Source of the DNA: an uncultured Candidatus Saccharibacteria bacterium | Lineage (GTDB): Bacteria > Patescibacteriota > Minisyncoccia > Minisyncoccales > CAZKCU01 | Reading direction: 5' to 3' | NCBI GenBank assembly: GCA_964551595.1 | Contig: CAZKCU010000003.1 | Location: 16,030-72,756, forward strand | DNA length: 56,727 nt | Shown: positions 6,685 through 56,714 of the stretch, in pieces | Numbering within the stretch: position 1 is the stretch's first letter | Layout: each line of letters starts with the position of its first letter | Notes under the pieces: generated by a model | Seen by the model: the letters and a program-made list of their open reading frames with translations, nothing else | Database searches by the model: none | Told to the model about the DNA's origin: nothing | Made by a program: the position numbers and the translations under genes

Positions 6685-9264
6685 ATGGGAAAAATCTCCT
6701 GGCATAATCTTACTTGGAAAGAAGTAACAAAATTATTATATTCTGACGTTAAGAAAGGCCTATCTGAGAAAGAAGTAAAATTTCGACAACGAAAATCAGG
6801 CAAAAACTTACTTCCAGAAGAAGAGCCTTTATCTCGATTAAGAATATTTTTAGAGCAATTTAGAAGCCCCCTAATTTATATTTTAGTAATAGCGGGAATT
6901 ATTACTTTGTTTTTGAGAGATTATACCGACGCCATTGTTATTTTCGGCGCTGTTTTTTTAAATACAATTGTTGGATTTTTTCAGGAAGACAAAGCATATC
7001 AAGCTTTAAGAGAGTTAAAAAAAGCGGTTAAACATACAGCTGAAGTTTTAAGAGAAGGAAATTTAAAAATTGTTGGTTCAGAAGAAGTTGTTCCCGGCGA
7101 TATTATTATTTTGAATCCAGGAGATAAAGTCCCGGCTGATGGCAGAATCATTGAATGCCATGATTTAAAAATTAATGAAATGGCTTTGACAGGAGAGTGG
7201 TTATCAGCAAAAAAATTGTCAGAGGTTTTGCCAAAAGAGAAACCTTTAGCTGATAGAGATAATATGGTCTATATGGGTTGTGTAGTTGAAGATGGAACGG
7301 GAAAAGTGATAGTTTCTGAAACAGGGGTTCAAACTGAAATTGGAAAAGTAGCTAAAATAATTAAGGAGACTAGGGAGGAAAAAACTCCCTATCAAAAAAA
7401 ATTAGCCGCTTTTTCTAAAATTGTCGGAATAGTTATTAGTATAATTTGTATTGGAATTTTTATTGAAGGGATGATAACTGGCGGAAAATTTATCGAAATG
7501 TTTACGACAGCCGTGGCAGTGGCAGTAGCAGCTATCCCTGAGGGATTACCAGTGGCAATGACAGTGATTTTAGCTCTCGGAATGCAAAGGATATTAAAAA
7601 AGAAGGGATTGGTGAGAAAATTAGCTTCAGCAGAAACATTGGGGAGCACTTCGGTGATTTGTAGCGATAAAACCGCCACCTTAACCGAGGGAAAAATGAA
7701 AGCTGGAGAAGTAATAGGGGATAAATTTTTAACTTTAAAAGCGGCTACTCTAACTTCAGCGGCTTTTATTGAAAATCCTACAGAGCCAAAAGAAGAATGG
7801 ATTTTCAGAGGGAGACCAACTGATAGGGCTTTACTTGAGGCTGGAATTGAAGTTGGAATTAACCCCAAAAAAAAGTTTGAAAAAAAGAAAATAGCTGAAA
7901 TCTCCTTTAACCCAATAAATAAATTTGCCGCCACTTTGTATAAGGAAAATGAGGGAAGTTTTTTGTATGCTTGCGGAGCTCCAGAGAAAATTTTAGAACT
8001 TTCAAGTTTAAAAAAAGAAGCTAAAGAAAATTTACAAAAAAAATTAGAGGAATTAGCTCAAAAAGGTTTAAGGGTAGTAGCTTCAGCTTACCGAAAAATC
8101 AAATTACCAGAGAACCGTTCTCTGTCTATTGAGGAATTATGTAAGGATTTAACCTTTCTTGGTTTTATCACCTTAAAGGACCCTGTTAGAAAAGAAGTAA
8201 AAGAAGCAATGAAAGTTTGTAGACGGGCAGGAATGAGTCCAATTATTATTACCGGTGACCATAAATTGACGGCAAAAGCTGTAGCTGAGGAGTTGGGTTT
8301 TAAAGTAAAAGAAGGAAATATTATGGAAGGAAGAGAGCTTGATCAACTTTCAGATGAAGAGTTTGAAAAAAAAGTGAAAGACATTCAAATTTATGCCAGA
8401 GTTGAACCAAAACATAAACTTCGTATTATTGAAGCATGGCAAGGAAAAGGAAAAGTAGTGGCGATGACCGGTGATGGAATTAATGACGCTCCGGCGTTAA
8501 AGAAAGCTGACATTGGAGTAGCTTTGGGTTCTGGAACCGAAGTGGCAAAAGAAACTTCAGATTTGATTTTATTAAATGATAGTTTTTCTATTATTGTGGC
8601 GGCAGTTGAAGAAGGGAGGGCAATTATTGATAATATCAGAAAGGTTATTACTTATTTATTATCTGATAGCTTTACCGAAATAATTTTAATCGGAGTGAGT
8701 CTTCTTTTGGGCTGGCCTCTTCCTATTTTAGCTGCTCAAATTTTGTGGGTGAATCTTATTGAAGATGGTCCCCTCGGCCTCTGTTTGGCTTTTGAACCAA
8801 AAGCAAAAGACCTAATGAAGCAGAAACCCCGAGGTCATGATATTCCTCTTTTAACCCGGGAGATGAAGGCCTTAATTTTTATTATCGGATTAGTGACCGA
8901 TCTTTTACTTTTAGGGCTCCTTTTCTGGCTAATAAAATATTCAGGTTATGAAATTCTTCATATCAGGTCAATAATCTTTACAGGACTTACCGTTGATTCG
9001 ATTTTTTATGTTTTCTCTTGTAAAAACTTAAGAAAAAATCTCTGGCAGATAAATCCTTTCTCCAATAAATTTTTAGTTTTTGCCTGGATTTTCGGTGTTA
9101 TAATGTTGATATCCGCTCTTTATCTTCCTCCATTACAAACACTTTTAAAAACAGTTCCCCTAAATCTTTTTGACTGGCAACTAATTTTAGGTTTAGGATT
9201 AATAAATATAATTTTAATTGAAGCAACTAAATGGCATTTTATTGCTAAAAAAGAATATGTTTAA
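6685..9264 (+). CDS. P-type cation-transporting ATPase (type II, Ca2+-ATPase-like) with variant motifs
   Basis: GDKVPAD, AIPEGLP, CSDKTATLT, KGAPE-like CGAPE, ITGD, MTGDGINDAPALK. Confidence 0.93.
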   Translation: MGKISWHNLTWKEVTKLLYSDVKKGLSEKEVKFRQRKSGKNLLPEEEPLSRLRIFLEQFRSPLIYILVIAGIITLFLRDYTDAIVIFGAVFLNTIVGFFQEDKAYQALRELKKAVKHTAEVLREGNLKIVGSEEVVPGDIIILNPGDKVPADGRIIECHDLKINEMALTGEWLSAKKLSEVLPKEKPLADRDNMVYMGCVVEDGTGKVIVSETGVQTEIGKVAKIIKETREEKTPYQKKLAAFSKIVGIVISIICIGIFIEGMITGGKFIEMFTTAVAVAVAAIPEGLPVAMTVILALGMQRILKKKGLVRKLASAETLGSTSVICSDKTATLTEGKMKAGEVIGDKFLTLKAATLTSAAFIENPTEPKEEWIFRGRPTDRALLEAGIEVGINPKKKFEKKKIAEISFNPINKFAATLYKENEGSFLYACGAPEKILELSSLKKEAKENLQKKLEELAQKGLRVVASAYRKIKLPENRSLSIEELCKDLTFLGFITLKDPVRKEVKEAMKVCRRAGMSPIIITGDHKLTAKAVAEELGFKVKEGNIMEGRELDQLSDEEFEKKVKDIQIYARVEPKHKLRIIEAWQGKGKVVAMTGDGINDAPALKKADIGVALGSGTEVAKETSDLILLNDSFSIIVAAVEEGRAIIDNIRKVITYLLSDSFTEIILIGVSLLLGWPLPILAAQILWVNLIEDGPLGLCLAFEPKAKDLMKQKPRGHDIPLLTREMKALIFIIGLVTDLLLLGLLFWLIKYSGYEILHIRSIIFTGLTVDSIFYVFSCKNLRKNLWQINPFSNKFLVFAWIFGVIMLISALYLPPLQTLLKTVPLNLFDWQLILGLGLINIILIEATKWHFIAKKEYV

Positions 9265-19451: not shown

Positions 19452-19455
19452 TTAT

Positions 19456-19526
19456 TCCGGGGTCGTCTAATGGTAGGACATCACCCCTTGGAGGTGACTA
19501 TCTTCGTTCGAATCGAAGCCCCGGAG
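19456..19526 (+). tRNA. tRNA-Gln(TTG) with C at position 33, CCA not encoded
   Basis: TCCGGGG/CCCCGGA acceptor with U1-A72; anticodon arm tcacc-ccTTGga-ggtga; T arm cttcg-TTCGAAT-cgaag. Confidence 0.88.
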
Positions 19527-19661
19527 CCCGAATAATCAGATACGAACTCGTTTTCTTGAACCAAAACTAAACTTTGATGTAAGCTAAAATATTTAACTCC
19601 GCGAACTTTATTTGGAACTGAAAGTTCTTTAAAAACCATTTAAAAACCAAAGGAGGTTGTT

Positions 19662-45582: not shown

Positions 45583-45650
45583 TTGACAGAGGTCTTTGCC
45601 CCCTTTATTATTAAGATAGATATAGTCGGACAATGTAGGTAAAGCGACGC
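45583..45650 (+). promoter_or_regulatory. Recombinase promoter with a 28-bp dif-like site in the leader
   Basis: TTGACA(45583)-17-TATTAT(45606), then TAGTCGGACAA-TGTAGG-TAAAGCGACGC (45623-45650). Confidence 0.7.
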
Positions 45651-45694: not shown

Positions 45695-46651
45695 ATGAAA
45701 AAATCTAATATACCAATAATAAAACATATCCCCGACTTTTTAGATTATTGTGAAGTTGAAAAAGGTTTAGCAGATAGAACTCAAGAAAATTATCAGCACT
45801 ATCTCCAAAAGCTCGTCTCCTGGCTGAAAAAGACTAAAAAAGAGACTCTCCTACCGCATGAGCTTACGGCTGAGGATATCTGGGCTTACCGCCTATATTT
45901 ATCTCGTTATACAGACGAAAAGGGCCGTCCCTTGAAGAAAGTCACTCAGAACTACTATTTAATCGCTCTAAGAGCCCTCCTGGGTTATTTTACTGCCAAG
46001 GACGTGATTTCGCTCCCTGCTGATAAAATAGCCCTTCCAAAGGACGCCAGAGCCGAAAAAACGGTAAAATTCCTTAATTTAGACCAGGTTGAGAAGCTTT
46101 TACTGGCTCCCAATACCAGTACCCCAATCGGCTTAAGGGACAGGGCTATTTTGGAATCTCTTTTTTCAACCGGTCTTAGAATAGCCGAACTGGTAGCCCT
46201 AAACCGAGAACAGTTTACCAATATAAAAGATAAAAAGGATCTGGAGCTTGGCATTATTGGTAAAGGGGCTCATCCCCGGACAGTTTACTTTTCTGAAAGA
46301 GCTCTTTCTTGGGTTAAGAAATATCTGGATACCCGCAAGGATAAAGAAAAACCATTATTTATACACTATAGAGCCAGACAAAATGCCGAGCCTCGTCTCA
46401 CGGCCCGCTCAATAGAAAGAATCGTCAAAAAATATGCCATCTTAGCTGGCGTTCCTATCTTCACCACTCCCCACACCCTTCGCCACAGCATGGCAACTGA
46501 TCTTTTAACTCAAGGTGTTGATTTAAGAACCATTCAGGAATTTTTAGGTCACAGAAATATTGTCACAACTCAAATATATACCCACGTAACAAACAAACGC
46601 CTCCGCGACATCCACCGCCAGTTCCACAGCGGCAAAAATTTAAAAGAATAA
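45695..46651 (+). CDS. Xer-family tyrosine recombinase
   Basis: SAM-like N-domain; LRDRAILESLFSTGLRIAEL (R), GKG (K), TPHTLRHSMAT (HxxR), LGH, TTQIYTHV (Y); no IntI-specific insertion. Confidence 0.95.
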   Translation: MKKSNIPIIKHIPDFLDYCEVEKGLADRTQENYQHYLQKLVSWLKKTKKETLLPHELTAEDIWAYRLYLSRYTDEKGRPLKKVTQNYYLIALRALLGYFTAKDVISLPADKIALPKDARAEKTVKFLNLDQVEKLLLAPNTSTPIGLRDRAILESLFSTGLRIAELVALNREQFTNIKDKKDLELGIIGKGAHPRTVYFSERALSWVKKYLDTRKDKEKPLFIHYRARQNAEPRLTARSIERIVKKYAILAGVPIFTTPHTLRHSMATDLLTQGVDLRTIQEFLGHRNIVTTQIYTHVTNKRLRDIHRQFHSGKNLKE

Positions 46652-47256: not shown

Positions 47257-47288
47257 ATATCGCATAAATATAATTAAATGTCGCACAA
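47257..47288 (+). other. Two tandem recombinase half-site-like boxes
   Basis: ATATCGCATAA (47257) and ATGTCGCACAA (47278). Confidence 0.55.
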
Positions 47289-47319
47289 TATTATCTACTT
47301 TTTTGCCTATGTTTTATGT

Positions 47320-47799
47320 TTAAGGTAGGGTCTCACATGCTAGGCCATCATTATCTCTATCAAGATCATGTATGTCATTATTTATTCCTCCACAATATTC
47401 AAAAGCCTCTTGAGCTTCTGCATGGGTTCTAAAATCGGAACAATTATATGCATTATAGGAACAAATTATTGTTTTAACTGGCGATGAAGGTGCCGTAGAT
47501 GGCGGCTCTAGTTCGGGTTCATATAAGGGTTCTGGTTCTGAGATGGGTTCGGGTTCAGGTTCGAGTTCAAGTTGGGATTCGGCTTCTGGGATTTGATTTT
47601 CGGTTCTTTGTGATTCCTCTTGTTCTGTTGTTTTGAGCTCCTCGTCAGACTCATCCTCTCTTAACGGCTCAGAGACCGAAGCTGGAAGTTTAGGAATAAT
47701 TTCTTCTTGAGTTGTGTTGTCACCAGATAAAGCAATAATAACAAAAACAATAATAAATCCTCCAAATCCAATAAGTGCTAATTTTAAAATTTTCTTCAT
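47320..47799 (-). CDS. Membrane-anchored protein with Pro/Glu linker and Excalibur Ca-binding domain
   Basis: N-terminal TM, EPEPEP linker, YNCSDF...AQ...[14 protein letters not shown]. Confidence 0.85.
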
Positions 47800-47893: not shown

Positions 47894-47921
47894 ACGACGA
47901 ACAGTACGCCTTGTGCGACAT
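47894..47921 (-). other. 28-bp dif-like site (degenerate)
   Basis: Minus strand: ATGTCGCACAA-GGCGTA-CTGTTCGTCGT. Confidence 0.55.
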
Positions 47922-47944: not shown

Positions 47945-48586
47945 TTAATTCCATAAATCTTTTTCTATGACCGTCCAGTCTTTCCGCCTCTTTAAAGATT
48001 TCTCTACTTTTTTAAAGTGCCCTCTTTTTTCAATAAATCCATCTCCGCTTATTTCTTTTCCTTTTTTAGTAAAGAAATCTTTGTTTGTATATTTTCTTTT
48101 AAGAATAAATTGAGCCCACTCTTCTATTGGTCTTTTTAATTCATATTGGGCCCGATAAGTGGAAAACATACCTCCAATTCCACTTTTCTCCAATAAATCA
48201 GCATCAAAGACAATTTTAGATTCTAATGTTTCTTGCGCTCCTCTTTCTTTATGAAGTTTTACGCAATAAGCAATTTGTTCAATTTCTTTCTTTGTATAAC
48301 CCATTTTAGATAAGTCTCGTTTCGTTATTCTAGCACCTACTTCTGCATGTTTTTTATAATCTCTAGCCTCAGTAACTCCGATATCATGAAGAATAATCGC
48401 TGGAATTAAAACAGAATAATCAACGTCCTTAATTGTTTCAGCAATAACTAATCCCCTATATAAATCCCTTATTATATGTTCCCAATTATGCTGAGGTTTG
48501 TTTGCTTTTAAATATTTCTTCTTTGCGTAGTTATAAACCCTCTTAATCCTTTTGTCTTTTTTAATAAAATAGTTAATTTTTTTCAT
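47945..48586 (-). CDS. HD-domain phosphohydrolase
   Basis: HNWEHIIR, IILHDIG, HAEVGA, VFDADLLE; ATG 48586 lies 7 nt after the -10 box. Confidence 0.88.
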   Translation of the reverse strand: MKKINYFIKKDKRIKRVYNYAKKKYLKANKPQHNWEHIIRDLYRGLVIAETIKDVDYSVLIPAIILHDIGVTEARDYKKHAEVGARITKRDLSKMGYTKKEIEQIAYCVKLHKERGAQETLESKIVFDADLLEKSGIGGMFSTYRAQYELKRPIEEWAQFILKRKYTNKDFFTKKGKEISGDGFIEKRGHFKKVEKSLKRRKDWTVIEKDLWN

Positions 48587-48593
48587 ATTATTC

Positions 48594-48626
48594 ATTCTAA
48601 CAAAAAACTGCCTTCTTGGCGATTTT
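48594..48626 (-). promoter_or_regulatory. Portable hairpin-promoter, leaderless
   Basis: tcgcca-agaaggcagttttttgt-tagaat-gaataat-ATG. Confidence 0.7.
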
Positions 48627-48675
48627 TTTTGAATTTAGCTCCGGGGACTAGACTATATTAAAATCTGTTTGAGAC

Positions 48676-49251
48676 TTATTGTTCTTCATGTTTTACTTCT
48701 TCTGGAAACAATAACTGAAATGGATAACCTACGTAATTTCTTTTTATTTGTCCACAACCAACGCTTTTAAGAAAATCAATCATTTCTTCTGTAATCTTTT
48801 TTGGGTCCACCTTTTCTTCTTTCCCAATATACTCAATTTCTACAAAATCTCCAAGCCCTTTTACTGAATCTACGGCAATCTCATAATCCTTATATGTCCA
48901 AACTTTTCTTAATTTGTCTACTTTAACAAGAGGCTTAAAATTAAGAACATCTAATATCTTCCTTAATTGAGTTAAATCTTCTATTTTGGTTTCGTATTCA
49001 TCACAATACTGACTTCTACCATTTTCATCATAATGCCAGTTTTTATAATTTATAGAATATTTACCGCCAGAATCTCTTAACCTCAACCACTTCTTAACTG
49101 GACGAACATCAATAAAATTACGATGAATTGGAGAAAAATATTCATCTATTTGCTGTCTTTCTTTTTGAAAGTCAGCATTCTTTTCTAAAAATTCTATTAA
49201 GGGTTTACCATTTTCAATAGTAACTTGAATTTCTATTTCAATGTCTTTCAT
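48676..49251 (-). CDS. CYTH-domain protein (class IV adenylate cyclase-like)
   Basis: EIEIQV, QIDEYF, LRLR, EYETKI, KLRKVW, GDFVEIE. Confidence 0.88.
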   Translation of the reverse strand: MKDIEIEIQVTIENGKPLIEFLEKNADFQKERQQIDEYFSPIHRNFIDVRPVKKWLRLRDSGGKYSINYKNWHYDENGRSQYCDEYETKIEDLTQLRKILDVLNFKPLVKVDKLRKVWTYKDYEIAVDSVKGLGDFVEIEYIGKEEKVDPKKITEEMIDFLKSVGCGQIKRNYVGYPFQLLFPEEVKHEEQ

Positions 49252-49257
49252 GTTTTC

Positions 49258-49290
49258 ATCTTACCAAAAAACCGCCTACTTGGCGATTTT
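49258..49290 (-). promoter_or_regulatory. Portable hairpin-promoter, leaderless
   Basis: tcgcca-agtaggcggttttttgg-taagat-gaaaac-ATG. Confidence 0.7.
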
Positions 49291-52106: not shown

Positions 52107-52173
52107 ATTTTCAAAAATTTAATTTTAATTAATTCTTCGACTTTTTTTAAATTCCCTTTAACTTCGGGCTAAA

Positions 52174-52215
52174 TTATTCTTCAGTTGAAACTCTGGCTAA
52201 AATTAAAGCTTTCAT
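52174..52215 (-). pseudogene. Serine recombinase N-terminal stub MKALILARVSTEE
   Basis: Matches the resolvase N-terminal YARVST motif; stop coincides with the shared junction motif. Confidence 0.6.
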
Positions 52216-52242
52216 AAATTGTATAATTATTCCACAGTAACA

Positions 52243-52701
52243 CTAAAAGAAGATACGCAAAGTGCCCTGTATCCATTTTATAGCTCGTTTCAATATGCTC
52301 ACTTTCTCATTCATCATTCCCATACTGGAATTACATTGTCTACAAACCCATCCCCTTATCTCGCCAGTTTCGGAGTTGTGGTCTAATACAACATCGTTTT
52401 TATATTGCCTGATTATCGTTCTATCACAAACGGGGCAATGAAAAGGCTTACCTATAGGTGGTCGTGGGTGTGTTTTTTCATACTCAATCCTTATTTTGAT
52501 GGGTATGGGTTTTCTCCACTTGCGGCATTCCTTACACTCACCTCTTCTTGAGACTTTGCCTCTAATAGTTCTTTGATTCTTTTCAAACTCAAAAATGCTT
52601 TTCCGTTGTTGGCAAGTGCGGCATATTTTTGTTTCGTTGAAACAGGAATCACAAAACTTTCCATGTGTCGCCTTATTACGATTACATTCAATACATTTCA
52701 T
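52243..52701 (-). CDS. Hpy99I-like beta-beta-alpha-Me (endonuclease VII type) restriction endonuclease
   Basis: KICRTC...FEKNQ...CKECRK, FHCPVC, LDHNSETGEIRGWVCRQCNSSMG. Confidence 0.75.
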   Translation of the reverse strand: MKCIECNRNKATHGKFCDSCFNETKICRTCQQRKSIFEFEKNQRTIRGKVSRRGECKECRKWRKPIPIKIRIEYEKTHPRPPIGKPFHCPVCDRTIIRQYKNDVVLDHNSETGEIRGWVCRQCNSSMGMMNEKVSILKRAIKWIQGTLRIFF

Positions 52702-53522
52702 AAAAGATTCTTAATTCTTTTTTGTGCTATCTTATAATACTTATTAGATAATTCACTACCTATATATTTTCTATTGTTGAGAATAGCCATTTTTGCTGTC
52801 GTGCCACTACCTATGAAGGGGTCGTATACAATATCACCTTTATTACTCCATGAGATTATATGGTCTTGTGCCAACTTTTCTGGGAATATGGCGGGATGTT
52901 CATAAGCAATTTTATCACTTGCGGAGTGCCCCTTTCCTATAAGATATTTCCACACATTTGTTCGCCTGCCGTATTTAGAATATCCAGCCCTACTTTGTTT
53001 CAATAGTGAGCCATCATACAGCCGTTTTGTGCCGTTATCGCCACCTCGCTCCTCTTTATTCTCCCTGTCTTTTATAAGATTTATTGTCTTTGGTGTATCT
53101 TTGCTTAATATGAACATATACTCAAATGTCTGCCAGTATGTTTTATTATTTCCAACTGCTCCTCGTGGTGTTTTAAGGTATATCATTGTGTCAAAAAGAT
53201 TAAAACCTATCTGTTTGAAATATAGAGCGTGTCTGAAAGACGTTCCTGTTTCGTTTCCCTTAACTGTTTGATCTCCGACAACCCACACAACTACACCCCC
53301 CCTTTTAGTAACACGATATAGCTCTTGTGCTATCAATTCAAATTCACTAAAAGTGTCGCCACCATATTTTCGTATATTATCATACGGAGGCGAGGTTATT
53401 GTTAAATCAACAAAATTGTTAGGCATTTTTGCCATAGTGTATAGGCAATTTTCATTATAGATTTTGTTTAATTTAAGACCCCTCTCCTTTATTGGACTTT
53501 TGTTTTTATTTTGTCTTTGCAT
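52698..53522 (-). CDS. N4-cytosine/N6-adenine DNA methyltransferase (beta class)
   Basis: TSPPY, HPAIFP, VYDPFIGSGTT; overlaps the endonuclease start. Confidence 0.92.
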   Translation of the reverse strand: MQRQNKNKSPIKERGLKLNKIYNENCLYTMAKMPNNFVDLTITSPPYDNIRKYGGDTFSEFELIAQELYRVTKRGGVVVWVVGDQTVKGNETGTSFRHALYFKQIGFNLFDTMIYLKTPRGAVGNNKTYWQTFEYMFILSKDTPKTINLIKDRENKEERGGDNGTKRLYDGSLLKQSRAGYSKYGRRTNVWKYLIGKGHSASDKIAYEHPAIFPEKLAQDHIISWSNKGDIVYDPFIGSGTTAKMAILNNRKYIGSELSNKYYKIAQKRIKNLL

Positions 53523-53631
53523 ATTCTAGAAATCTGTTTAATTCCTTTTTATCAATTCTAAACTCTTTGCCTATTTTGTAGGCTTTCAATACTAATTCCC
53601 TTACAAGGTAGAATTTTTTTTGGTCATTCAT
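53506..53631 (-). pseudogene. HTH_17 excisionase-like gene with the central helices deleted (41 aa)
   Basis: MNDQKKFYLVREL//VLKAYKIGKEFRIDKKELNRFLEY. Confidence 0.6.
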
Positions 53632-53646
53632 GATTGTAAGTATTCA

Positions 53647-54039
53647 TTATTTAATTTCTTCTTCAATTTCTTCGTCAATTTTAGCTAAAGATTTTTTCAT
53701 TTCTTTTATAATTAAAAAAAAGAGCATTTTCTTGTTAAACTCCCTTTCTTCCTTGCCTGTTATTATTTTTTCAAAGGATTGAAAAACTTCCTTAGGAAAA
53801 TAAAATTGAAGATCGCTTATCATATCTATGTCATAACTGTTCTTTGTCATCCCGTCTAATATTTCTTTTTTGGCCTTATTAAACACTTGCTCTAATTTAT
53901 CTCGCCTCAATCTTAAGTGTTGAATTTTTATTTCTTTTTTCCATTTTCGGTAGTTTAAAAAATGTGTAATAAATTGAGCAACAGTTACGATGAGGCCACC
54001 AATTATAACACCAATTAAACCGATTATAGCTTCTGACAT
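53647..54039 (-). CDS. Hypothetical protein with an N-terminal TM
   Basis: IIGLIGVIIGGLIVTVAQFI followed by a charged helical domain. Confidence 0.7.
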   Translation of the reverse strand: MSEAIIGLIGVIIGGLIVTVAQFITHFLNYRKWKKEIKIQHLRLRRDKLEQVFNKAKKEILDGMTKNSYDIDMISDLQFYFPKEVFQSFEKIITGKEEREFNKKMLFFLIIKEMKKSLAKIDEEIEEEIK

Positions 54040-54126
54040 AGTTTTAATAATTTAATTTATGTTTCAACACTGCTTTCATTATACTTTACAATTATTTACA
54101 GGACAATGGAGCAAATATAAGTTTAA

Positions 54127-54224
54127 ATGTCGCACAAGATGCGTAGTGCGACGTAAAAAACCACTTTCTTGAGAGAGCGGCGGCCGAAATCGGGACTACT
54201 GCCCTAGTTAGACAATATTAGAGC
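54127..54224 (+). repeat. Cassette trailer copy A, with a symmetric 28-bp site
   Basis: ATGTCGCACAA-GATGCG-TAGTGCGACGT, terminator-like hairpin, ccctagttagacaatattagagc. Confidence 0.75.
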
Positions 54225-54238
54225 TTGTTTAGTGCGGG

Positions 54239-54622
54239 TTATTTATTTTTTGCTTTGTATTTTGCAACTAGAAAACCAATCTGTTGCCCGACGGCTAACG
54301 ATAATAAGAGTATGGTAATTTTTTTATTGCTCCCAATAATGCCCTCGATTATATAAGAAATTATGGCAAAAATTAATAAAAAAATAAAAAGGGCGTTTCT
54401 TTTTTGTCTATTGGCAAATTTATCGCCAATATATTGTCCAATGTTCAATACAAAGAAAAACATACTAATATTTTTTTCTTTTCCAGTGATACTTTCAAGT
54501 ATATAAAAAAATATAGTAAAAATTAATAAAAAAATCGAAAGAAAGTTTTTTCTTGTTACAATATATATTGATTTTTGATACCACTTAGTCATATAGTTGT
54601 TTACTTTTATAATTTTATTCAA
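54239..54622 (-). CDS. Membrane protein with two internal ~49-aa repeats, start uncertain
   Basis: IFLLIFTIFFYILESITG...IGQYIG versus IFLLIFAIISYIIEGIIG...VGQQIG. Confidence 0.6.
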   Translation of the reverse strand: MNKIIKVNNYMTKWYQKSIYIVTRKNFLSIFLLIFTIFFYILESITGKEKNISMFFFVLNIGQYIGDKFANRQKRNALFIFLLIFAIISYIIEGIIGSNKKITILLLSLAVGQQIGFLVAKYKAKNK

Positions 54623-54928
54623 AAAAACCTACCTGCCTAATAAAATCAACCAGCTTTGAAATATAACCATAGGCTAATTACTATATATATCTAGCAATAA
54701 GAGGCCAAACAAAACACAAAATCGCAAGTATTCTTAAAATCCATTTTTCTGAATTTTTTGTCGCTTTTGTGCAAAATATAAAAAAACAACTCCTACAATC
54801 CAAGAACCAAAAACTGCTATAACCATAAATTAGTTCAATATTTAATCTTATGAATTTGACCTTTCTTCTCTAATCCTACCAAAAAACCGTCTAAGTAAAT
54901 AGGCGGAATTCCCGGATCCGCGGGTAAG

Positions 54929-55085
54929 ATTCTAACTAATACAAATTATGCGACATTGACTCCTCATTCATAGATTGTGAGACAAGATAAGCTTTTGACT
55001 CCTCATTGATGCGTAGTGCGACGTAAAAACCGCCTTCTTGAGAAAGCGGCTGAACTGATCTCCCCTAGCTGGACGATGTTAGAAC
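54929..55085 (+). repeat. Cluster of three 28-bp dif-like sites plus cassette trailer copy B
   Basis: Sites at 54929-54956, 54958-54985 and 54997-55024, then aaaaaccgcc hairpin and ccctagctggacgatgttagaac. Confidence 0.75.
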
Positions 55086-55101
55086 CTGTTTTTAAAAGAT
55101 G

Positions 55102-55128
55102 AGAGAGCGTTCGTTAGGAACGCTCTCT
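55102..55128. terminator. Hairpin terminator
   Basis: agagagcgttc-gttag-gaacgctctct. Confidence 0.7.
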
Positions 55129-55149
55129 TGAGAAAATCCTCTTGGCTGA

Positions 55150-56055
55150 TTAATGTTCGAATATCCTTATACTAAGCTTTCCTCCGTGCTCTGTCGCTTC
55201 TTTTATTGAGTGCAACCAAAATACTTCCTGAAACGATTTAGATTCTTTTTCGGCTTCCCGCATATAATCTACTATTTGCTTTGTGTATTCTCGTAGACTG
55301 ATGGCGAAAATTCTGGATAGTTCATCGTTAACAAATCCTTCCAAAAATGAGTCTGTTCCTCTCAGAAATCTTTTCCTAGATTGTCTTTGGCGAGTTAGAA
55401 CTTCTGCCATATCTCTAAGTATACAAAGTATATCGCTAACCATTCCAGTTAAGACTTTTGATACCTCATGAGCTTTTTCGAGGTTTTGGTTGACCTTTTT
55501 CCACTTAATACTTGAAATCGAATCATATTGGGGAATTAAATCAATTCTTACGGCTTCCTCGCCGTTATACATATAATTCTGCAACTTACTATCTCCAGGA
55601 ATAACTCCCTTTAAGCAAAAGAGGTAAACTGTCTTGCCCAGGGCTTTCAATTCTTTATGCGGTATTACTACCCGGAAAAAGGAAATCCCTTCATCAGCTA
55701 AGATAATTTCTTTATAATCTCTCCCGTTTATTCTATCGATTATTACTATGTCTCCTACGTTGTCATTGTTCACGCCCATTGCTACAGGGTTCTCTACGGG
55801 TAATCCTAGGCTCTGGCAGTACTTTAAGAATCCAAAAGATTCGGGAGGGTAAAATTTAAGCAAATATCTTCCGAATCTATATGTGTGTTCTGTTAGTATT
55901 TCGGGCTCAAGGCTCGAAAGATAACCTAAAATTACCGCCAAATCTATACCTTTAGGTGAATAAAAGTCTTTTATTCCTATCTTTTTCAAATCCCCCTTAG
56001 CCTTCATTCTGTGATACTGACCTACGAATTCTGTGCCTATTATTTTATTTTTCAA
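55150..56055 (-). CDS. Hypothetical protein, probable atypical kinase fold (Kdo/WaaP/RIO-like)
   Basis: YLLKFY, GLPVENP, GVIPGDSKLQNYM, VRIDL; TTGACA-17-TATAAT promoter and AGGAGG RBS. Confidence 0.55.
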   Translation of the reverse strand: MKNKIIGTEFVGQYHRMKAKGDLKKIGIKDFYSPKGIDLAVILGYLSSLEPEILTEHTYRFGRYLLKFYPPESFGFLKYCQSLGLPVENPVAMGVNNDNVGDIVIIDRINGRDYKEIILADEGISFFRVVIPHKELKALGKTVYLFCLKGVIPGDSKLQNYMYNGEEAVRIDLIPQYDSISSIKWKKVNQNLEKAHEVSKVLTGMVSDILCILRDMAEVLTRQRQSRKRFLRGTDSFLEGFVNDELSRIFAISLREYTKQIVDYMREAEKESKSFQEVFWLHSIKEATEHGGKLSIRIFEH

Positions 56056-56222
56056 GGTGCCCTCCCTCCTTATTATTGACTTATGATTTATTTTTTATGA
56101 TTTATTTTTTAGTTAATTTAGAATTCTTAATTATACAATTCATATTTAATTTTGTCAATAAAAAGCGGCATAGTGGCTTAAAATATTTTGCTCCAGAGGT
56201 AAGGCTCGAACCAATAAAAATC

Positions 56223-56312
56223 TTGACTCCTCATTGATGCGTAGTGCGACGTAAAAAACCGCCCAAATAAATAGGCAGAATCTCGGCTCCCTTGGCTGGA
56301 CGATGTTAGAAC
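56223..56312 (+). repeat. Cassette trailer copy C, with a 28-bp site identical to 54997-55024
   Basis: GACTCCTCATT-GATGCG-TAGTGCGACGT, hairpin, ccttggctggacgatgttagaac. Confidence 0.8.
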
Positions 56313-56317
56313 TTTTT

Positions 56318-56674
56318 TTATTTAGATTTCATAATCTTACTAACTTTAACCAATATAGCGCCTTTGGCGGGCAGTCCTCTATTTTCTTTTAATTTCTTTA
56401 CATATTGAATCCATTTCCCTTTTTTAAAATATTTACACCTACCAAGAAATTGGTATCCTTCCCACTTCTTATCCCAAACTATTAATGCAACATTATTGTT
56501 TTTAAGAATGTTTTCTACTGTAATCTTCATAAAACTATCGGTTACCAATATCTCATCGTTGCCCATAACCTTACAACAAGCGACAGCGATAGCATAAGGT
56601 TTACCATCTCTAACAGTGGCGAGGGTCATAGGGTTTTCTTCAACTATCTTTTTAATCTTTGGGGTAATTTTCAT
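56318..56674 (-). CDS. Pyridoxamine 5'-phosphate oxidase-like FMN-binding protein
   Basis: LATV..GKPY, D.FM..T.ENILKNNNVALIVW, GYQFLG. Confidence 0.85.
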   Translation of the reverse strand: MKITPKIKKIVEENPMTLATVRDGKPYAIAVACCKVMGNDEILVTDSFMKITVENILKNNNVALIVWDKKWEGYQFLGRCKYFKKGKWIQYVKKLKENRGLPAKGAILVKVSKIMKSK

Positions 56675-56680
56675 ATTTCC

Positions 56681-56714
56681 ATTCTACCAAAAAATCGCCT
56701 TCTTGGCGATTTTC
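56681..56714 (-). promoter_or_regulatory. Portable hairpin-promoter, leaderless
   Basis: aaaa-tcgcca-agaaggcgattttttgg-tagaat-ggaaat-ATG. Confidence 0.72.

Follow-up and report, generated by a model that had tools for sequence, protein, structure and literature searches.

Among the described systems that come closest to the locus studied here are the integrative mobile elements that exploit Xer (IMEXs), such as CTX-phi, VGJ-phi and TLC-phi in Vibrio and the gonococcal genetic island, whose attachment sites keep one Xer arm and the central region whilst the other arm is divergent (PMC5357621). The pdif modules of Acinetobacter plasmids are small, many with just one gene; 28-bp Xer-type sites bound them, and they occur in varied contexts (PMC7399989, PMC5790767). 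In streptococci and lactococci, a single xer gene and its adjacent palindromic target form one module, XerS/difSL, for which the review gives no cassette array and no secondary site classes (PMC5357621). The locus in question lies in a 56,727-nt stretch of DNA from an uncultured bacterium (contig CAZKCU010000003.1), referred to as the window, in which single-gene modules, all antiparallel to a xer gene, occupy about 10 kb after it. Within this array, two identical 35-nt repeats enclose one gene, g301.

How accessory genes are gained and swapped in bacteria of the candidate phyla radiation (CPR) is poorly understood; their genomes are tiny and, to our knowledge, few classical mobile elements have been recognised in them. 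We consider it on balance probable, though only narrowly so, that the 35-nt repeats are directly repeated Xer-type core sites, made up of an 11-bp arm of the GTCGCAC family, a 6-bp GATGCG centre and a non-palindromic CTCC-rich arm, and that Xer catalyses exchange between sites with a common centre, whereby modules would be cut out as circles and re-inserted.

Repeated sites, the xer gene and related loci

The 35-mer TTGACTCCTCATTGATGCGTAGTGCGACGTAAAAA is present in two exact copies, at 54995-55029 and 56223-56257, whose starts lie 1228 nt apart, as an earlier note on this DNA had reported. Its last 22 nt (GATGCG followed by TAGTGCGACGTAAAAA) are also found exactly at 54138-54159, 870 nt before the copy at 55008, which agrees with the note's further claim that a site at 54127 has the same GATGCG spacer and right arm. 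The window contains three matches to this 22-mer, against none in every one of 100 shuffles. At the full site (S3 in Table 1), the centre and right arm are those of the 35-mer core (termed D1), and ATGTCGCACAA stands in place of the CTCC-rich arm. A two-arm inverted layout around the centre is present at 54127, where the arms agree at 9 of 11 positions, and again at 45623, upstream of xer. The 35-mers have the attachment-site pattern in which one Xer arm and the centre are kept and the other arm is divergent. The tyrosine-recombinase reading of the earlier note is supported in that the repeats are built like Xer-type core sites, with a centre and arm in common with the palindromic site at 54127, and in that a Xer is encoded 8-10 kb away.

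Each 35-mer opens a unit of ~100 nt, in which D1 is followed by a G+C hairpin that carries a T-run and serves as terminator on the gene strand, and then by a second core type, D2, reading GTTCTAACATC-GTCCAG-..GGGAGC on the gene strand. These units are located at 54125, 54995 and 56223; a weaker D2 is found at 48639 as well. The two that flank g301 are 82% alike outside the 35-mer, and the ~134-nt unit at the second D1 copy has 86.6% identity to a contig with other neighbour genes (L015).

The site family extends well beyond this genome. The 22-mer was found exactly in nine metagenome contigs that have no flanking sequence in common with the window, with a left-hand arm that is either palindromic or of a conserved CTCC-rich kind (e.g., TTAGCTCCTCAsT), and in L011 the match to the repeat covers 36 of 36 nt. 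Sites with a GATGCG centre number 14 in 12 sources (the window and 11 other loci), with an invariant centre and a variable left arm, and sites of the S3 type also occur in L096, L017, L021 and L013. In all six cases in which xer is on the same contig as the 22-mer site (the window, L012, L013, L016, L017 and L021), the site has the same orientation and is 2.6-9.6 kb downstream of xer.

Scanning genomes with the Xer protein yielded 80 Patescibacteria loci, the best being from Ca. Paceibacter normanii (92%) and one being from a complete Nealsonbacteria genome. The upstream synteny g377-gltX-xer is kept in >40 loci, whereas downstream of xer the 80 loci have none of the window's array genes, save for one weak CYTH match (30% identity, L017). 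The dominant word common to the regions downstream of xer is AAATGTCGCACAATATTA. Site S1, a conserved arm and centre with variable DNA to its right, supplies the top shared 12-mers of these regions, in up to 22 of 36 loci, and so marks the xer-proximal edge of variable DNA.

The xer protein has a full-length match to the NCBIfam XerD/XerC models (~213 bits, which is below the equivalog cut-offs), its best sequence match in the PDB is E. coli XerD, and no paralogue is encoded within the window. In 32 of 79 loci, a palindromic site of the type found beside it (dif0) stands upstream of xer at a distance of 34-263 nt, and dif0 is probably the cognate dif of xer. Cumulative GC skew reaches its maximum at about 45-46 kb, and in each of the 30 relatives examined the genes downstream of xer keep the opposite direction to it over at least 6 kb. 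These observations are consistent with a replication terminus, and the position of xer and the array is probably that of the terminus of a Patescibacteria (Paceibacteria-type) chromosome. The gene is also unusually conserved for its neighbourhood, since it has 80-84% nucleotide identity between L016-L050 and the window where the adjoining gltX is only 52-70% alike as protein.

Downstream of xer in L012 (3989-4360), two direct GATGCG-class sites 337 nt apart enclose a promoter and no sizeable open reading frame (ORF), so that a small RNA or peptide may be the cargo. Between the two strains L007 and L010, which are 97-98% alike in nucleotides, there is a ~2-kb replacement and a 68-nt indel, both adjoining sites of the D1 family.

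Module exchange and its possible mechanism

The interval between the 35-mers holds g301 as its only ORF, with a promoter of 12/12 consensus, an AAGGAGG box shortly upstream of the start and a terminator-like hairpin, in keeping with the single gene with promoter, ribosome-binding site and terminator that had been described. Only this 301-aa kinase-like protein and no recombinase is encoded there, and we infer that Xer would be used.

The gene had also been said to belong to an array of modules, and comparison with relatives supports this, as single-gene modules are reshuffled among them. L126, which is from the same sample as L097, has five modules in common with the window at 92-97.6% nucleotide identity, with their orientation kept and their order permuted. 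In the window the order is PNPOx, g93, DUF5680, NUDIX+g58, YceG, and in L126 it is YceG, PNPOx, g93, NUDIX+g58, DUF5680, with other genes interleaved. This is orientation-preserving cassette shuffling between close relatives. The neighbours of g301 differ as well. In L096/L097 (93% amino acid and 96% nucleotide identity) the order is 293-aa and 37-aa genes, g301, 157-aa gene; in L099 (83% amino acid identity) it is a HAD hydrolase gene, g301, 56-aa gene; and in L098 (72% amino acid identity) it is a CYTH gene, g301, 159-aa and 243-aa genes, then xer. A reading of the 96% nucleotide identity of g301 to L096 amid unalignable flanks as distant horizontal transfer was withdrawn, because L126, the sample-mate of L097, shows that a close relative shares five other modules at 92-97%.

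Three comparative breakpoints, one each with L096, L099 and L126, lie no more than 2 nt from predicted arm/centre junctions. Likeness between the window and L126 ends at 56303, the arm/centre junction of D2 copy C, and the window and L099 diverge directly after GTTCTAACAT(C/T)-GTCCAG-C in D2 copy B. Where L096 has 19 nt, the window has 84 nt; this difference ends within 2 nt of the arm/centre junction of D1 copy B, and the next 87 nt (54929-55015) are 94% alike. Homology of g301 with L096 and L099 starts, on the gene strand, between GGAGC and AAAATATTTT at about 56194-56199, and the arms before it are of GTTC.. type and differ in each genome.

The earlier note had allowed that the repeat could be an assembly artefact; it is not, as the same arrangement, with both repeat copies and the gene in between, is present in two further assemblies. 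L001 (an ENA scaffold) has 8 single-nucleotide polymorphisms over 6299 nt, and L003 (a JGI contig) is identical over its 5148 nt of overlap with the window and runs 2.7 kb past the window end. A Logan contig of 1253 nt (L002) covers exactly 55000-56252, and its identity as an excised circle was ruled out: when a k=31 graph breaks at a 35-nt repeat, the unique 1193 nt are left with 30 nt added on either side, and the contig is thus no evidence of a circle.

Several observations weigh against exchange by Xer at the 35-mers. Only one arm of D1 is of the Xer family and the other, GACTCCTCATT, is no inverted copy of it, so that D1 by itself falls short of a canonical two-arm site. The D1 copies are 8.3-9.6 kb from xer, and their GATGCG centre is unlike the TGTAGG of the xer-adjacent palindrome. 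Neither an empty-site allele nor a circle was found via the exact flanking proteins and closest homologues, which led only to occupied or broken contigs; the k=31 contigs carry no information on this, and every contig of sufficient length is occupied. (The predicted junctions are AGACAAGATAAGCTT + 35-mer + ACCGCCCAAATAAATAGG for the empty site and GGCTCGAACCAATAAAAATC + 35-mer + CCGCCTTCTTGAGAAAGCGG for the circle.) Strains without this gene alone had been put forward as a check, and the sole informative close relative, L126, instead joins the PNPOx gene to g93 and misses a block of 4,156 nt (52147-56302), not 1,228 nt. Other breakpoints in L126 fall at GGTATATT, AGAGTAGGGGATA and a terminator/promoter linker, which are motifs without a Xer-like arm; a role of GGTATATT as a repeated junction site was rejected, there being no enrichment of it in the window. 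The edges of the g301 module documented by comparison are the D2-type junctions with their GGAGC arm (about 55069 to about 56200, ~1.13 kb), not the 35-mers.

Recombination between the two 35-mers would free a 1,228-bp circle, and such an event is possible, but it is not the one that the comparison documents. Of the proposal that this is a 1,228-bp excisable module, the mobile-gene context and the credible sites therefore stand, whereas no circle or empty site was found and the boundaries compared are different ones. The suggestion that it is the most recent insertion in the array is unsupported, because the same 36 nt occur exactly in an unrelated contig (L011), so that identity of the 35-mers is no sign of recency, and the units around them have diverged to the extent given above. 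If insertion took place at the full site at 54127, then the adjoining 870-bp unit would be the newest, not g301.

Exchange by Xer is nonetheless favoured because the centre and right arm of D1 are those of the palindromic site at 54127, and because the arm family is that of the palindrome upstream of xer. It is favoured also because the 22-mer is conserved and linked to xer in all six cases, the region downstream of xer is variable, the modules are shuffled and the breakpoints fall at site junctions. In the proposed mechanism, the chromosomal Xer would exchange strands at the edges of the 6-bp centre, between partners that share a centre. Modules, of which the kinase-like g301 would be one, would leave as circles and re-enter elsewhere in the array, or in the array of another cell, with their orientation kept. 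The ~100-bp units, in which a terminator hairpin stands between the D1 core and a second 11-6-11 core bearing the XerD-arm-like GTTCTAACATC arm, punctuate the ~10-kb array downstream of xer.

The inter-gene units may alternatively be standard linkers composed of regulatory parts (terminators, promoters, and protein-binding or untranslated-region elements), of which the 35-mer would be one, with modules moved by RecA-type or slipped recombination between short repeats. Several linker families do repeat in the array (the terminator with TGnTAGAAT promoter before three genes, and AAATTTAGCCCGAAG), the L126 breakpoints outside Xer-like arms suit such a model, and in L121-L123 the g301 homologue is bracketed only by terminator+TTGACA direct repeats. 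An identity of 35 bp is, however, near the lower limit of RecA-dependent exchange. The three breakpoints within 2 nt of arm/centre junctions, the 6-bp centre that is invariant in 12 sources whilst the left arm varies, the arm family held in common with the palindrome beside xer and the constant orientation relative to xer all argue against linkers, and we regard this explanation as unlikely. The array might instead have grown by one-way accretion of the IMEX type, with circles bearing a CTCC-arm-GATGCG-Xer-arm site integrating serially at the full site at 54127; the 35-mers would then be right-end scars with a defective arm, and the gene would not be readily excisable. The layout of full site, 870-bp unit, D1, 1,228-bp unit and D1 fits this, as do the two direct D1 copies in L012 and the attachment sites of IMEXs, which keep the XerC side and centre and diverge on the XerD side (PMC5357621). 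Against it, the site at 54127 is not the probable dif, as its centre is unlike that of the palindrome at 45623; conservation of the CTCC arm from genome to genome suggests function; and the permuted modules between relatives need excision besides insertion. Accretion of this kind is judged quite improbable.

A further explanation is that a small element, mobile or copy-pasted, is formed by the ~100-nt unit of core, hairpin and core, and that two such elements landed astride the gene, which they would not define. Relative to L096, there is extra unit sequence on both sides of the collinear g301 module (108 nt between GGAGC arms upstream, and the 84 nt for 19 nt downstream), and the gene-less 108-nt piece also occurs in L015 beside unrelated genes. 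The units at the two copies are too unlike, however, to be recent copies of each other, neither a transposase nor a target duplication nor terminal inverted repeats came to light, and the unit edges coincide with recombinase-type junctions; this explanation is judged very unlikely.

Further sites and cargo in the array

The features of the locus are collected in Table 1. Besides its place in S3, the ATGTCGCACAA arm occurs at 47278, at 47911(-) in a full site, at 54946(-) in the dif-like site and at 54975(-). The inverted pair at 47278-47288(+) and 47911-47921(-) brackets a gene for a secreted protein with an Excalibur domain (47320-47799), an arrangement that is pdif-module-like and unlike the direct 35-mers. 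The dif-like site S4 accompanies g301 in L096, and agrees at 17 of 28 positions with the E. coli dif sequence.

Table 1. Positions of the xer gene, g301 and the predicted recombination sites in the window.
Feature	Position	Strand	Description
dif0, palindromic 11-6-11	45623..45650	+	TAGTCGGACAA-TGTAGG-TAAAGCGACGC; about 45-70 nt upstream of xer
xer	45695..46651	+	318-aa protein; Pfam Phage_integrase 1.9e-37; sole tyrosine recombinase in window
S1	47276..47293	+	AAATGTCGCACAA+TATTA; arm and centre conserved, DNA to right variable
S2, full site	47894..47921	-	ATGTCGCACAA-GGCGTA-CTGTTCGTCGT; inverted relative to S1; same type in L021
S3, full palindromic site	54125..54159	+	ATGTCGCACAA-GATGCG-TAGTGCGACGT; arms 9/11 as inverted repeats
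D2 copy A, diverged	54197..54224	+	within unit holding S3
S4, dif-like	54929..54956	-	ATGTCGCATAA-TTTGTA-TTAGTTAGAAT; conserved in L018, L096
S5, diverged D1-type	54956..54990	+	TTGACTCCTCATT-CATAGA-TTGTGAGACAA; 71% copy of D1; conserved in L013, L018, L019, L096
D1 copy B	54995..55029	+	TTGACTCCTCATT (CTCC-rich arm), GATGCG centre, TAGTGCGACGT (Xer-type arm), then AAAAA; exact 35-mer
D2 copy B	55058..55085	+	gene strand: GTTCTAACATC (XerD-arm-like), GTCCAG, CTAGGGGAGAT
g301 intrinsic terminator (hairpin)	55102..55128	-	conserved in L096, L099, L121
g301, sole ORF in interval	55150..56055	-	301 aa, TTG start
g301 promoter	56130..56158	-	TTGACA-17-TATAAT, 12/12 consensus; conserved in L096, L097, L099
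Degenerate D2-type junction	56190..56217	+	gene strand: GGTTCGAGCC-TTACCTCT-GGAGC
D1 copy C	56223..56257	+	identical to copy B, direct orientation
D2 copy C	56285..56312	+	begins 5 nt past PNPOx stop codon

Other repeated sequence is present between the genes. The same ~45-nt linker stands before the HD, CYTH and PNPOx genes (48582-48626, 49246-49290 and 56669-56713), and is built of a terminator hairpin (CGCCAAGAAGGCG) that runs directly into a TGnTAGAAT extended -10 and start codon. On the gene strand, AAATTTAGCCCGAAG is a further junction motif after five genes (47932, 50733, 51296, 51812 and 52163), and is also found at gene ends in L018 and L126. A conserved non-coding element of ~90 nt (GACCGAGAsGC..TTrTGAGACA..TTAATTT..GGTTCGAGACCGACTAGGGGAGC), the end of which resembles the 3' end of tRNA-Gln, occurs at ~2595-2712 in L003 (just beyond the window end), at ~7725-7815 and 6938-7025 in L096, and, as the reverse complement, between genes in L018; no Rfam match and no covarying structure were found for it. 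The sequence GAATTCCCGGATCCGCGG at 54906-54923 has EcoRI, BamHI and SacII sites within 18 nt in a genome of 34% G+C. It looks natural rather than vector-derived, and the homologous stretch of L018 differs.

The g301 protein has no Pfam, NCBIfam, PADLOC or PHROG match. Its AlphaFold2 model (mean predicted local distance difference test score of 85.8) has the Bud32/PRPK, WaaP and RIO atypical kinases as its best PDB folds (E = 3e-6, template modelling score 0.40-0.46) and so resembles a protein-kinase-like fold; the invariant K67, D155, N160 and D172 would fit the catalytic motifs of kinases. Only nine homologues were found. Homologues of 40% identity are encoded in archaeal contigs (L118-L120, with ribosomal L21e and Rpb4), where a gene for a SAM-dependent methyltransferase follows directly. 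At 52243-53522(-), a gene for an N4/N6 DNA methyltransferase (best PADLOC match, an orphan methyltransferase) overlaps an Endonuclease-VII/His-Me-finger gene (PADLOC REase_II, 2.5e-18), and the pair is possibly a small restriction-modification module inside the block absent from L126. The gene g127 is an orphan, for which a homologue search was uninformative.

Searches of IMG/VR, phages and plasmids for the g301 module and the D1 site gave no match, and the 18 matches to AATGTCGCACAATATTA in IMG/VR are mostly chance matches inside phage genes. Two of the 18, in predicted viral contigs of ~16 kb (L108 and L116), are full palindromic AATGTCGCACAA-TATTAr-TTTTACGACrTT sites about 100 nt from the contig ends, and these palindromes are candidate phage attachment sites of the TATTA class.

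Comparison with known systems

Full-text literature searches for Xer-linked cassette arrays in CPR bacteria returned work on IMEXs, pdif modules and integrons, and no description of such arrays. It is conceivable, and we put it forward tentatively as something short of likely, that Patescibacteria of the Paceibacteria/Nealsonbacteria type have an integron-like cassette system run by their single housekeeping Xer. Promoter-bearing cassettes would be kept at the terminus, with composite sites of three arm types (GTCGCAC, GTTCTAAC and GGAGC) and centre classes that act as compatibility groups, and would undergo exchange and permutation at strain level.

Integrons resemble the locus in having an array of single genes in one orientation beside a tyrosine recombinase, an order that varies between relatives and a site of ~100 bp after each gene with crossover at a conserved core. 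The differences are that xer lacks an IntI-specific region, that the cassettes here have their own promoters (g301 has its own 12/12 promoter and terminator), and that the array converges on the recombinase gene where integron arrays diverge from it. With the integron-integrase model TIGR02249, the match is confined to residues 234-303 (88.7 bits, where the cut-off is 265), and IntI4 (2a3v) aligns with 239-301 only. An identity of the sites as integron attC was rejected, as the R''/R' boxes are unpaired and there is neither a folding signal nor an IntI domain; the 151-nt unit folds no better than its shuffled versions (z = +2.4 and -0.03 on the two strands). A structured RNA was likewise rejected, as neither the array nor L096, L018, L003 and L012 gave a match in Rfam, whether by gathering or by E-value threshold. 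No tRNA was predicted by ARAGORN for the array and 9 related loci, which does not agree with a tycheposon-like island array targeting a tRNA or tmRNA; between the junction motif GTTCGAnnCC..GGAGC and the 3' end of tRNA-Gln at 19455-19529 there is a likeness only.

As in XerS/difSL, the xer gene of the window is single and has a palindromic site immediately adjacent, although this site is of 11-6-11 form and not 31 bp with an 11-bp centre. The pdif modules are also small gene modules bounded by Xer-type sites and found in different contexts. Their sites stand in inverted C/D-D/C orientation and on plasmids, whereas the sites here are direct repeats in a chromosomal array beside xer, with inverted arms flanking only 47320-47799.

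The likeness to IMEXs lies in cargo without its own recombinase, in tandem arrays beside a full site and in a host Xer as the presumed catalyst (PMC5357621). The modules here are single genes of about 1 kb rather than phages or islands, and the sites are 1-10 kb from the probable dif and not in it. The integration into dif that characterises IMEXs is not seen: dif0, with its TGTAGG centre, is unoccupied, and the D1 copies with their GATGCG centre are 9.3-10.6 kb away. The locus also differs in having several centre classes (TGTAGG, TATTAr, GATGCG and GrCGTr), a second core type with a XerD-like arm, and permuted modules.

With short, defined sites and a single recombinase protein of 318 aa, the idea is directly testable. 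If the resolvase of chromosome dimers does also run a cassette array, this would be a compact route to strain-level gene turnover, and a third solution, beside integrons and IMEX/pdif modules, for moving single genes by a tyrosine recombinase.

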